From NCBI GenBank assembly GCA_965203485.1, contig OZ241892.1, forward strand, positions 2,848,001-2,912,000: DNA of 64,000 nt. The letters are read 5' to 3'. Position numbers and translations under genes: made by a program. Shown here piece after piece: positions 43,666 to 46,769 of the stretch (its first letter is position 1; each line of letters begins with the position of its first letter). Source of the DNA: Longimicrobiales bacterium. Lineage in GTDB: Bacteria; Gemmatimonadota; Gemmatimonadetes; Longimicrobiales; Gaopeijiaceae. Below the pieces are notes generated by a model that was not told the DNA's origin, did no database searches, and saw only the letters and a list, made by a program, of their open reading frames with translations.

Positions 43666-44139
43666 TCACACCAAGTGCACGACCTCCAGCCCGTCCCACC
43701 GGCGTTGCAGGTATTCGGCCACAAGGCGCCGGTGGCAATGTTGGGGCTCGTGCTCGCTGCAAAGCATGCAGTCGCCGTCCTGCAGGAACGGCTGGCCCGG
43801 CGCCGCGTCCTTCTCGGCGAGCACGGCTTCGATCCGGCGTTCGCGCATGAGGGCGTCGAAGCGGGGCTCGTAGCCGCTCCAGTCGATCCGCTTCTTTCTG
43901 TAGTCCGCCAGCAGTTCGGGCGTGGGCGCCAAGACCGGCATGTGGACGTAGCCCACGCCGCAGATGGCATCCAGGAAGTAGGCGAGGTCGTTCTTCTTGG
44001 CGAAACCCGCGAGCTGCGACCCGGGCTTGATCCGGACGTCCACGACGCGACGGAGACCCGACTTCTTGGCCGTAGCGACGAGCTCTCCGAAAAATCGCCG
44101 TGCCGGCTTCTTGGTGAACCCGATGGTGAAGAGCTTCAT
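43666..44139 (-). CDS. DUF488 family protein (short form)
   Basis: FTIGF, VDVR..SQLAGFAK, LAPT, LCSE.EPQHCHR. Confidence 0.85.
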   Translation of the reverse strand: MKLFTIGFTKKPARRFFGELVATAKKSGLRRVVDVRIKPGSQLAGFAKKNDLAYFLDAICGVGYVHMPVLAPTPELLADYRKKRIDWSGYEPRFDALMRERRIEAVLAEKDAAPGQPFLQDGDCMLCSEHEPQHCHRRLVAEYLQRRWDGLEVVHLV

Positions 44140-44197
44140 TTTCGCGACGGTCTCCGTAGGGGGCTGGTTGACTTGATCGATGGAGCGGACACGGGGG

Positions 44198-44836
44198 CTA
44201 CGCGCTCCGACGGCGAGCGGGTTCCCAGCGTTCGCCGCGGGCAAATCCGACTTCGCGCGCTTGGCGGGCCACGGCCTCCTCGACGCGCTCGTCCCGCGTG
44301 CGGGGGAAGAGGTCCGTTTGCGCGCCGCTCAAGTTGTGCCTGGCAAGCAGGTCGTCCATGACGGCCGCGTGGGACGCGAGAGAGCCGTCCACGAGGATGT
44401 GCTCGACGCCGACGCCTCGGTGGTCCAGCGCCTGCGCGACCAGAAGCGTCCGATGGCAGTTCAGCGGCTCCATCTCCGAGCACATCATCGCGACGCGATG
44501 CGATGCGGCCTCGGCCAGAAGTCCGTCGAGGCCCCGGTGAAACGCGGCGCTGCAGGCGACGCGGTCGTACCGGACACGCCCGTCCTCGTAGCAGGCGGGG
44601 TCGGACGGCCGGCCGCCCAGCTCGTCGCCGAAGTAGACGTAGCGGACATCGCGTTCCGCCAAGAAGGAACGCAGGGCCTCGCGGTCGAAGTCCGGGGCGA
44701 ACCGACTGTACGGGGCCGACCGGACGTCCGCCAGCACGGCGATTCCATGCCGGTGCAGCAACTCCTTCGCAAAGCGCTCCCGTGAATGGTTCGAGTGGCC
44801 GGCCGTGAAGACGGTGAGGGCTTGCTCCGACGGCAT
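44198..44836 (-). CDS. DUF488 family protein (long form)
   Basis: TAGHSNH, ADVRSAPYSR, ELGGRP, MCSE.EPLNCHR; TGATG overlap with upstream gene. Confidence 0.85.
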   Translation of the reverse strand: MPSEQALTVFTAGHSNHSRERFAKELLHRHGIAVLADVRSAPYSRFAPDFDREALRSFLAERDVRYVYFGDELGGRPSDPACYEDGRVRYDRVACSAAFHRGLDGLLAEAASHRVAMMCSEMEPLNCHRTLLVAQALDHRGVGVEHILVDGSLASHAAVMDDLLARHNLSGAQTDLFPRTRDERVEEAVARQAREVGFARGERWEPARRRSA

Positions 44837-45522
44837 CAGCGCCGCTCCTCGACGACGGCGGCGGCCAGCTTGTAGCAACTTCCCCCATAGGGCTCGCCCA
44901 GGCTGACGGTCACATAGCATTCGCCGGTCTCGTATTCTCCGTCGAGCTTCGCCAGATACGTCTTCTCGTACACAGGGTCCGTGACCCAGATGCGGTAGTC
45001 CTTGCCGGCATGAGAGAACATGGCCTGCACGCGGCGCTTGGAGTTTCCGAACGCTTCGCCAGGAGCGAACACGCGAAGACGCAACCGTTCCAGGCGCACA
45101 AGTCGCAGGGAGCTGGAGACGCGGCCCATGAGGTCCAGCGGAACCTTGTCGTTGGTGCCGTTGTACGTGCTGTGTCCATCGATCCAAAGGGGCTCGGGCG
45201 GGTCCAGCAAGCGAGGCAGGTCGAGCCAGGAGAAGCTGCCCAGCTTCTTCCAGTAGCGCTCGGCGTCGAGAAGCCAGTTCTCGGTTTGCCACTCGTCGGG
45301 CTTCGGCGCGAGCACCGGAACGCTCACGATGTCGAGGACCCGCGGATCGCTGCCGTCCTCGTACTGGCGTTCGTGCTCCGACACTTCCTGGCCGGGCCGC
45401 GCGCTCACGGGGCGAATCCATGGACCCGCCGCCTTTCCGCCGGCCCACTCCCGTCCGGCGACGCACCGGCCCGACAGCTTGCGCGAGTTGGCCAAGCAGA
45501 CGATCCGCTTGACGGCGCTCAC
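44836..45522 (-). CDS. Dual OB-fold domain protein
   Basis: KRIVCLANSRKLSGRCVAG, WIRPVS, Q.ENW, SSLRLV, VTDP, VSLGEP..CYKLAA; GTGA overlap with upstream gene. Confidence 0.8.
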   Translation of the reverse strand: MSAVKRIVCLANSRKLSGRCVAGREWAGGKAAGPWIRPVSARPGQEVSEHERQYEDGSDPRVLDIVSVPVLAPKPDEWQTENWLLDAERYWKKLGSFSWLDLPRLLDPPEPLWIDGHSTYNGTNDKVPLDLMGRVSSSLRLVRLERLRLRVFAPGEAFGNSKRRVQAMFSHAGKDYRIWVTDPVYEKTYLAKLDGEYETGECYVTVSLGEPYGGSCYKLAAAVVEERR

Positions 45523-46769
45523 GATTGTGCCGCCCAGATCACCAGCTGAAGCTCGGCATCGCCGACCAGTGCGTACTCCGGCAACCGTCCCGACAGCTCC
45601 CGGCTCTCGCGGCGAATGACCGGCACGCCGTCGCCCCTTCGGTCCATCAAGCGCTTGCGGCCCACGTCCGCGCCGGGGGGCACGGGGCATCGCGCCAGCA
45701 ACGACACGAGGATCTCGTTGCGGCAGGACTGGACGAGATGCAGGCTGTCGGCGGACAGCCCATTGGCCAAGCCGCCGGGCACGCGAAGCTCCAGACGATC
45801 TCCGAACATATGCAGCCGAATTCGCGCCCCGTGCATCGAATAGTCGCGGTGAGCCACTGCATTGACGAGAGCCTCGAAGACGGCCCGTTCGCTGAACTGC
45901 GGGCATTCCGACCGCGCCGTGCGCTTGGTGGCGCGCACAAGCATGTTGCGGCGCACGAAGTGCAACGCTTCCTCGACTTGCTGGTCGATCGGTCCGCCAA
46001 TGTCGCGGGCGTCGCTTTGGTAAGCGGCGTCCGTTCGTTCGCCGGCGTAGCTGACCGCCTGAACGTAGGCATGCGGAAGCCACTGCTGCGGTTCGCGCGT
46101 GCAGAGCAGGACGCCTGCGAGAGTCAGCCGCGCGCGGCCGTCCGAGTCGTAGGCCGCAATCCTCGCCTTGCGCAGGACGGCCAGCTCTTCCTCGGGCGTT
46201 TCCGGCACGGATTCCAAGTCGCCTTGGACGAAGCGGCGCGTCAGCGAATAGTGCAGGTCGTCGGGCGTCGTGTCGGGCACCACCGATCCGTCGAACCGCA
46301 GAACCCTGCTCTGGCTCCGTTCCTGGAAGAGTCGCGCCAGGGCCTCGGGCGAAACTTCGCGCTTCGAGCTCCCCAGCCTGCGGAAGTACCCGCCCGGGCT
46401 CCTGTGGACGAAGAGACTCCGCGGCACTTCCACGCAAATCACCGGCGCCAGGATCCCCTCGGCATTTGGCGCTTCCTCCTTCAGGATTTCGGCGTCCAGC
46501 GGCGGCTTCACGGAGTCGTTGCAGATTTCGCGAATCCATGTTTCCACGGCGTCGAGGCGCTCGAGCGGGATGCCCTCGGCCAAACGGGTCTTGTCGTCCA
46601 CGCCCAGCGCCAGCGTTCCGCCCCGGGCGTTGGCCAGCGCCGCCAGCTCGTCGGCGACGCTGTCTCGGCTGGGCTCGCTGACGCGTCCCCCGGACATCCG
46701 AACCCGCTTCAGCTCCAAGGCCGAGTCCTCGCCCAAGCGAAGGCGGCGGCTCAGACTTCGATCGCTCAT
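45519..46769 (-). CDS. AlbA_2 (Schlafen-like) + HATPase_c_4 ATP-binding protein
   Basis: GEDSALELK, ALANARGG..LGVDD, EALVNAVAHRDY, PGGL, RN.IL, RGDGV; RBS GGAGG. Confidence 0.85.
   Translation of the reverse strand: MSDRSLSRRLRLGEDSALELKRVRMSGGRVSEPSRDSVADELAALANARGGTLALGVDDKTRLAEGIPLERLDAVETWIREICNDSVKPPLDAEILKEEAPNAEGILAPVICVEVPRSLFVHRSPGGYFRRLGSSKREVSPEALARLFQERSQSRVLRFDGSVVPDTTPDDLHYSLTRRFVQGDLESVPETPEEELAVLRKARIAAYDSDGRARLTLAGVLLCTREPQQWLPHAYVQAVSYAGERTDAAYQSDARDIGGPIDQQVEEALHFVRRNMLVRATKRTARSECPQFSERAVFEALVNAVAHRDYSMHGARIRLHMFGDRLELRVPGGLANGLSADSLHLVQSCRNEILVSLLARCPVPPGADVGRKRLMDRRGDGVPVIRRESRELSGRLPEYALVGDAELQLVIWAAQS

Follow-up and report, generated by a model that had tools for sequence, protein, structure and literature searches.

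The DNA analysed here, a stretch of 64,000 nucleotides from a Longimicrobiales bacterium (GenBank assembly GCA_965203485.1, contig OZ241892.1, positions 2,848,001 to 2,912,000; hereafter the window), carries on its minus strand, at positions 43666-46769, four co-directional and tightly packed genes, which we denote A to D. Gene A (45519-46769, 416 residues) encodes a predicted Schlafen/AlbA_2 nuclease joined to a GHKL-type ATPase, an arrangement called a 'Schlatpase'; gene B (44836-45522, 228 residues) encodes a dual-OB protein of the DuOB family; gene C (44198-44836, 212 residues) a canonical 'GHS' DUF488 protein with a conserved C-terminal extension; and gene D (43666-44139, 157 residues) a DUF488-N3a protein of the 'active N3 subclade'. 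The stop codon of A overlaps the GTG start of B in GTGA (45519-45522), the stop of B and the ATG of C overlap by 1 nucleotide in TGATG (44834-44838), and D follows the stop of C after a gap of 58 nucleotides. The ATG of A is preceded by GGGGGGAGG, with a strong GGAGG-type ribosome-binding site, and ahead of A lies a promoter-like site with a sigma-70-like pattern, TTGACT-N17-TACGAT (46869-46841, minus strand), which is a consensus match only, agreeing at 9 of 12 positions. A scan of 43400-47100 returned two promoter-like sites, against a mean of 0.3 in shuffled sequence; one of them stands ahead of A and none between the operon genes, and no terminator-like site was found in the same interval. 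The genes, overlaps, gap and promoter-like site all agree with the original prediction, a reading of this DNA from its letters and open reading frames (ORFs). None of the 6 listed runs that contain all or part of this DNA is an RNA run. The GC content of the cassette (0.665-0.689) shows no marked dip relative to the window (about 0.70). A 682-residue ORF at 44836-46884 was rejected as a gene: it is the frame of B, which stays open across A in GC-rich DNA.

Gene A is, judging from its domains and conserved catalytic motifs, a stand-alone Schlatpase, that is, a predicted Schlafen nuclease followed by a predicted GHKL ATPase. Pfam places SLFN_AlbA_2 at residues 14-139 (E 5.9e-11) and HATPase_c_4 at residues 314-401 (E 2.1e-14); the protein ends 15 residues past the GHKL match, with no C-terminal helix-turn-helix (HTH) and no sensor domain recognisable by Pfam. 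The nuclease motif, E14-DSAL-E19-L-K21, is an intact Ex4(E/D)xK and is accompanied by D59. Across an alignment of 25 A-family sequences there is no variation at E19, D59, E299 or N303, and conservation reaches at least 90% at E14 and K21. When a profile built from 25 family members was searched against the PDB, it retrieved 3lmm together with Schlafens 13, 14, 5, 11 and 12; these matches cover residues 5-80 of A, a region that aligns with the catalytic lobe in Slfn13 and SLFN14. Foldseek searches with the AlphaFold model (pLDDT 84) returned 3lmm at 1e-19, SLFN14, SLFN11, SLFN5 and SLFN13 at about 1e-5 and the GHKL kinases PDK2 and PDK4 at about 1e-3, as well as the SAMD9 tRNase domain. Against PADLOC, gene A matched only domain-sized parts of pAgo-associated models; in PHROGs it matched a family labelled 'DNA helicase' (1.9e-41); and no NCBIfam model matches any of proteins A, B, C or D.

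The combination of AlbA_2 with PF13749 was named the 'Schlatpase' supradomain in 2026 (10.64898/2026.05.29.728809). According to the accessible part of that preprint, it occurs in 58.6% of 103,533 prokaryotic Schlafen proteins, most of them small and with at most an added HTH, and the module has been exchanged among defence systems that include pAgo, NACHT and type I restriction-modification (RM) systems. In RzAgo, the SLFN-pAgo of Runella zeae, ATP binding by PF13749 is reported there to lead to tetramerisation, which makes tRNA cleavage possible once the target has been recognised. Gene A has the same two Pfam domains in the same order, keeps the acidic residues of the nuclease and retains the E/N pair of the ATPase, its E299 and N303 being the counterparts of the ATP/Mg-binding E314 and N318 of RzAgo; it differs from RzAgo in having neither an Argonaute core nor another sensor. 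The ATPase-gated Schlafen RNase originally proposed for A fits the published work on this relative; A keeps both Ex4ExK and the E/N residues, and an activity of the RzAgo type may by analogy be expected of A. A second study, again as far as its accessible text goes, describes prokaryotic Schlafens (pSlfns) as phage-activated tRNases in which Ex4(E/D)xK is catalytic (Perez Taboada et al., Nat Microbiol 2026, PMC13056530). Their commonest architecture is a histidine-kinase-like fusion (34.0% of 5,930 proteins, with 19.2% more that also carry an HTH), the class to which A, with its Ex4(E/D)xK, belongs. The validated members of the pSlfn1-55 set carry DUF262 or Ig-like sensors in cis, whereas at the present locus the candidate sensor would act in trans, from the three downstream genes.

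Gene B matches Pfam DuOB at E 8.3e-70, and its structural model (pLDDT 90, pTM 0.89) contains two beta-barrels. Its structural matches, all of them OB-fold DNA binders, were weak: the best Foldseek match was CTC1 at 8e-4, followed by the D. radiodurans SSB, HIN-200 and RPA, with TM scores of 0.26-0.37, and VIA-align reached a best Z of 5.2, for baculovirus LEF-3, and Z of about 4 for single OB folds. Many charged residues are invariant in the DuOB alignment. The family comprises 4,022 clusters at E <= 1e-5, called 'hypothetical' wherever the source names them. Among 47 longer DuOB relatives, 35 are fused to helicases (31 RecQ-type, 3 UvrD-type and one DEAD/Helicase_C_2), 6 to DUF488 and 2 to SMC/ABC-type ATPases. 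Because it is found fused to helicases and to DUF488, DuOB is tied both to DNA transactions and to the protein family of its two neighbours. No match to gene B was found by tblastn in 50,697 phage records, and PHROGs holds no family for gene B or gene C.

Both C and D match Pfam DUF488, a family placed computationally in the rhodanese-phosphatase superfamily, at E 2.1e-23 and 1.5e-21, respectively, and D matches DUF488-N3a in addition (E 1.3e-11); with these assignments Pfam bears out all four domain calls that had been made for the operon. Gene C carries the motifs GHSNH, DVR and CSEMEPLNCHR, and in a 12-sequence alignment its residues D37, V38, R39, C119, E121, P124, C127, H128 and R129 are invariant; no solved relative was found for it by sequence. 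Gene D carries IGFT, DVR and CSEHEPQHCHR, with I6, G7, F8, T9, D34, R36, C124, C127, E129, C135, H136 and R137 invariant in an alignment of the same size, and has a weak match in PHROGs. The two proteins thus share DVR and the cysteine motif and belong to different subtypes, GHSNH and IGFT, as had been proposed, but the spacing of the cysteine motif is C-x-E-x5-C-H-R in both, one residue longer than had been claimed. Burroughs and Aravind are said to have predicted, in 2023, DNA-end processing by DUF488 proteins in conflict systems, and the Pfam models DuOB and DUF488-N3a reportedly also derive from their work.

By their PADLOC matches, genes B, C and D are the candidate system PDC-M45, matched near end-to-end, in the same order, adjacent and co-directional. 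Gene B corresponds to PDC-M45A (PDLC04653, E 1.3e-93, residues 1-227 on model positions 1-226 of 230), gene C to PDC-M45B (PDLC04657, E 3.3e-69, residues 7-202 on positions 4-195 of 204) and gene D to PDC-M45C (PDLC04658, E 7e-58, residues 1-156 on positions 1-144 of 145). Judging from its three PADLOC models, PDC-M45 is a multi-gene PDC. The original description of the cassette as uncharacterised, in the sense of uncatalogued, does not hold for these three of its four genes, which match an already named system. In print, a literature search found no paper that uses the name PDC-M45, nothing on a DuOB/DUF488 cassette among the DUF488 matches listed, and nothing on a combination of Schlatpase and PDC-M45; the accessible main text of Payne et al. 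(2024, 10.1101/2024.01.29.577857) names neither PDC-M45 nor DUF488, the accessible part of the RzAgo preprint (10.64898/2026.05.29.728809) mentions neither DuOB nor DUF488 as partner genes, and DUF488 is likewise not mentioned in the accessible part of PMC13056530. The statement that the four-gene combination has no experimental characterisation agrees with this search, which found none.

The trio B-C-D is distributed sparsely. DuOB is present in 5 of 401 sampled genomes of the phylum, in 4 of them above the Pfam cut-off, and is not found in the genome from the same genus; in the second phylum examined, that of a Binatia relative (Binatota), it is present in 13 of 301 genomes. The order B-C-D is kept in most related loci: among 12 related genome loci, C is present in 11 and D in all 12, with B truncated in one and split in another, and none of them has rplS, rnhB, imuA or imuB near the trio. 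Some copies appear decayed (L002, L011, L012 and L018/L020): L002 lacks C, B of L012 is cut to 84 residues, B and D of L011 are each in two pieces, and in genome G071 B is split.

Plasmids and known defence loci recur among the surroundings of the trio. DuOB occurs in 12 plasmid records. On an Agrobacterium plasmid the trio adjoins a CBASS operon and TcmP, and on one from Allochromatium it is contained in a type III CRISPR locus. A shorter variant, DuOB-DUF488-DUF4326, is found next to a NotI-type RM system on a small Klebsiella plasmid of IncFII type (L031). Eight further enterobacterial plasmid records (Klebsiella, Citrobacter, Salmonella and Leclercia) hold DuOB matches at 27-28% identity. 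At other genome loci the trio adjoins the BglII pair of an RM system, or has a DUF1156 methylase on one side and a HEPN-DUF499 ATPase on the other. The latter setting is frequent in metagenomes. For 80 metagenome loci, 71 of the 107 listed flanking ORFs were scanned, short ORFs and duplicate contigs having been dropped. The gene just upstream of the trio matched DUF1156 in 13 of 49 ORFs, a lower bound in that the model covers the N-terminal 73 residues only, and the gene just downstream matched HEPN_Swt1, with or without DUF499, in 14 of 22. PADLOC identifies these flanks as HmaB and HmaC (reported E of 0) in the two loci checked, which contributed four proteins. The trio is inserted between hmaB and hmaC, with gaps of 3-31 nucleotides on each side, at L006, L068, L076, L081, L083, L093, L095, L099, L112, L118, L123 and L127, among others, and the HmaC that follows it has a Swt1-like HEPN RNase domain at its N-terminus.

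A patchy distribution, together with neighbourhoods of the Hma, RM, CBASS and CRISPR kind, marks the trio as a mobile cassette associated with defence. The copy in the window resembles its relatives in matching all three PDC-M45 models in order; it differs from those relatives embedded between hmaB and hmaC, the 'guilt-by-embedding' setting, in that it does not lie inside a modification system, its flanks being rplS and an imuA-like gene, and in that it has an extra first gene, the Schlatpase. No insertion boundaries could be drawn from the genome of the same genus, which shares rnhB-rplS only and differs on both flanks. A search for direct repeats on either side of the operon gave nothing beyond short matches of the kind expected by chance, and no tRNA gene lies near it, the only one in the window being at 16191-16265.

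How regularly gene A accompanies the trio was judged over 89 DuOB loci, of which 9, the window included, have A, 61 do not, and 19 could not be judged. A stands directly upstream of B in 4 of the 12 genome loci, three from Longimicrobiales (L001-L003) and one from Binatia (L005), and in 4 of the 80 metagenome loci (L063, L064, L065 and L092, with identical B proteins in L063 and L065). In the DuOB tree all nine A-linked rows fall into one 14-row clade (SH-aLRT 95); the linkage label requires three changes on this tree, and none of 500 shuffles of the labels was as clustered. The eight trio-linked A proteins are likewise united in one clade (SH-aLRT 95) when 28 members of the A family are treed. 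The linkage is kept down to about 64-70% identity and is found in both Gemmatimonadota and Binatota, and the GTGA overlap of A and B is common to the window and L001-L003. No conserved promoter or operator element was detected upstream of A, where the regions of five loci align at 46% mean identity. Because the A-linked loci form one clade in both trees, the joining of A to the trio has a single origin: the A-linked form is a subtype whose genes have since been passed on together, though not without losses, and which is seen in two phyla or more. Across the family as a whole, A is a minority accessory of the trio with a non-random distribution. The original treatment of the Schlafen gene and the trio as one system is not supported as it stands, A being no constant part of the set; where A is present, it marks a single clade. 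The four genes are a genuine variant, kept by inheritance, of a candidate system already listed in PADLOC.

The relatives of A found away from the trio bear on where it came from. The A family is expanded in this genome, which has eight matches to it, and is carried by only 8 of the 81 genomes of the taxonomic family at E <= 1e-20. Among 29 A-like loci, the trio is present in one only, from the genome of L002. The trio-linked clade of A nests among paralogues that follow a same-strand AAA_21 ABC ATPase (8 of 20 loci). Such Schlatpase paralogues behind ABC ATPases are found at L034-L043, in this genome and others of the family, and at positions 4713-5936 of L002. The two ABC ATPases checked by PADLOC, that upstream of A in L002 and that upstream of the L040 paralogue, match HEC-01A (1e-95 and 1e-107). 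HEC-01, a pair of an ABC ATPase and a TOPRIM protein, is a validated Hma-embedded defence system (accessible text of 10.1101/2024.01.29.577857). The paralogue loci differ from it in that a Schlatpase stands where HEC-01 has its TOPRIM protein, and they look like a form of HEC-01 whose second component is a Schlafen nuclease; gene A of the window has no such ATPase upstream. Because sister Schlatpases pair with HEC-01A-like ATPases in TOPRIM's place, the comparison suggests that A is a swappable effector module that was re-partnered here with the trio. In L002 and L003 both neighbours are present at once, an HEC-01A-like ATPase and an MT-A70 methylase upstream of A and the trio downstream, an arrangement in which A may instead be part of the upstream ATPase module.

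Defence function, sensor-effector coupling and chemistry are all proposals drawn from this material. That the locus serves defence at all seems to us somewhat probable. Whether the Schlatpase upstream of PDC-M45 makes up a four-gene, mobile anti-phage system operating by the mechanism that follows is, in our estimation, an even call. In the first step, DuOB would bind single-stranded DNA or DNA ends from an invading element. The DUF488 pair would then process a terminal group on the bound nucleic acid through its conserved Cys/His/Arg site. That event would release or activate the Schlatpase which, by analogy with RzAgo, would oligomerise in an ATP-driven manner and cut tRNA, and translation would stop in the infected cell. 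In an equally open variant, defence would rest chiefly on the trio, with the Schlatpase in reserve as a second effector. A true coupling of sensor and effector between the trio and A, taken by itself, is doubtful. More specific still, and unlikely as it stands, is the idea that the trio supplies the sensor which this Schlafen tRNase lacks, and that the trio's engagement or enzymatic product switches on the ATP-gated Schlatpase; the trio in its commonest setting, directly upstream of HmaC, would then be a second instance of the same wiring.

Several observations weigh against a four-gene defence system of this kind. A is absent from 61 of the 70 judgeable DuOB loci, from the three other Gemmatimonadota loci and from 12 of the 13 loci of the Binatota sample, some of these at contig ends. 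Within the A-linked clade itself, A has been lost at least twice (L004; L075/L077), and L002 lacks C. Two apparent fusions of A and B (P0121 and P0122, AlbA_2 plus DuOB) were rejected as frameshift read-throughs, in which A runs out of frame into the open frame of B; they are artefacts, and no true fusion is left. The OB assignment of gene B is structurally weak at the Foldseek and VIA-align scores given above. The accessible text of PMC13056530 reports defence only for DUF262 and Ig-like pSlfn fusions, the histidine-kinase-type fusions tested having given no protection against the phage panel, and the majority of Schlatpases are reported as stand-alone proteins in the accessible part of 10.64898/2026.05.29.728809. 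The 145 PDC systems are 'guilt-by-embedding' candidates without experimental test (Payne et al. 2024, 10.1101/2024.01.29.577857, accessible text), and the literature search found no experimental work on PDC-M45 or on the four-gene set. The role in defence or repair named in the original prediction stays, accordingly, at the level of inference.

The strongest competing explanation is that A and the trio are two independent modules that travel together, their adjacency being the outcome of defence-island clustering and co-transfer with no functional coupling. Besides the many trios without A and the losses of A or C within the A-linked clade, the abundance of the A family elsewhere speaks for it: 28 of the 29 A-like loci have no DuOB or DUF488 nearby, and this genome itself holds eight A-family genes. 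The double neighbourhood of L002 and L003 points the same way, as does the description of most Schlatpases as small proteins with no other domain or a short HTH only (10.64898/2026.05.29.728809, accessible part). Mere cohabitation, however, sits less easily with a GTGA start/stop overlap kept in four genomes, with a single promoter-like site ahead of A and none between the genes, or with the co-inheritance of A and B as single clades to about 64-70% identity across two phyla; nor does A have a recognisable sensor domain of its own. We regard independence as a serious possibility, held at less than even weight.

The neighbourhood on the other side of the promoter raises a different reading. An imuA-like gene (no Pfam match), imuB (IMS family) and a dnaE2-like polymerase gene occupy 46906-53096 on the plus strand, divergent from the operon and only about 140 bp from it. 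The operon could on this account be a DNA-damage or DNA-end repair module, in which damaged or single-stranded DNA would be bound by DuOB and blocked ends cleaned up by the two DUF488 proteins; it would serve genome maintenance and might share SOS control with imuA-imuB-dnaE2. The helicase fusions in 35 of 47 longer DuOB relatives, taken with these neighbours, would also fit a role in DNA maintenance, to the detriment of the anti-phage interpretation. The only SOS-box-like repeat, the direct repeat GTTCGG-N6-GTTCGG, is present at 46908-46925; yet it overlaps the promoter-like site of imuA, not the promoter of A, and the SOS-box-like pattern is not above chance in the window, with two matches where 10 of 100 shuffles gave at least two. 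Of the two lexA genes in the genome, one (L142) likewise has TTCGG repeats ahead of it; the TTCGG direct repeat may be the SOS box of this lineage. Given that imuA or imuB is near the trio in none of the 12 related genome loci, the link to imuA being unique to this genome, that a sporadic distribution (5 of 401 genomes) is unlike that of a core repair function, that the usual contexts are Hma, RM, CBASS and CRISPR loci, and that a Schlafen tRNase would be an odd partner for repair, we consider a repair module improbable.

Another defence-like pair lies close by. At 53199-54979 on the minus strand, 6.4 kb from the operon and just downstream of dnaE2, PADLOC identifies an AbiL-like pair consisting of an AAA_21/AAA_15 ATPase (AbiLi, 1.4e-47) and a DUF3226 protein (AbiLii, 7.6e-8); it forms a low-GC island of 0.53-0.56 against about 0.70. 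A second stretch of lowered GC content, 0.61-0.63, spans 28000-30000 of the window.

If A and the trio are independent modules, the locus is one more defence-island neighbourhood. If instead the trio does switch on the Schlatpase, a Schlafen effector would for the first time be seen under the control of rhodanese-phosphatase-type enzymes, and the trio placed before HmaC, with its HEPN RNase and ATPase, would combine DNA sensing by the trio with RNA cutting by an ATPase-coupled RNase. The candidate system PDC-M45 is widespread, to go by its 4,022 DuOB clusters, and stand-alone Schlatpases are the commonest prokaryotic Schlafens; the clade that joins A to the trio pairs a candidate sensor with a candidate effector. 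With such a pairing the chemistry of the DUF488 proteins could be followed easily, through tRNA cleavage or growth arrest, and it is chiefly as an experimental handle of this sort that the locus is of interest.

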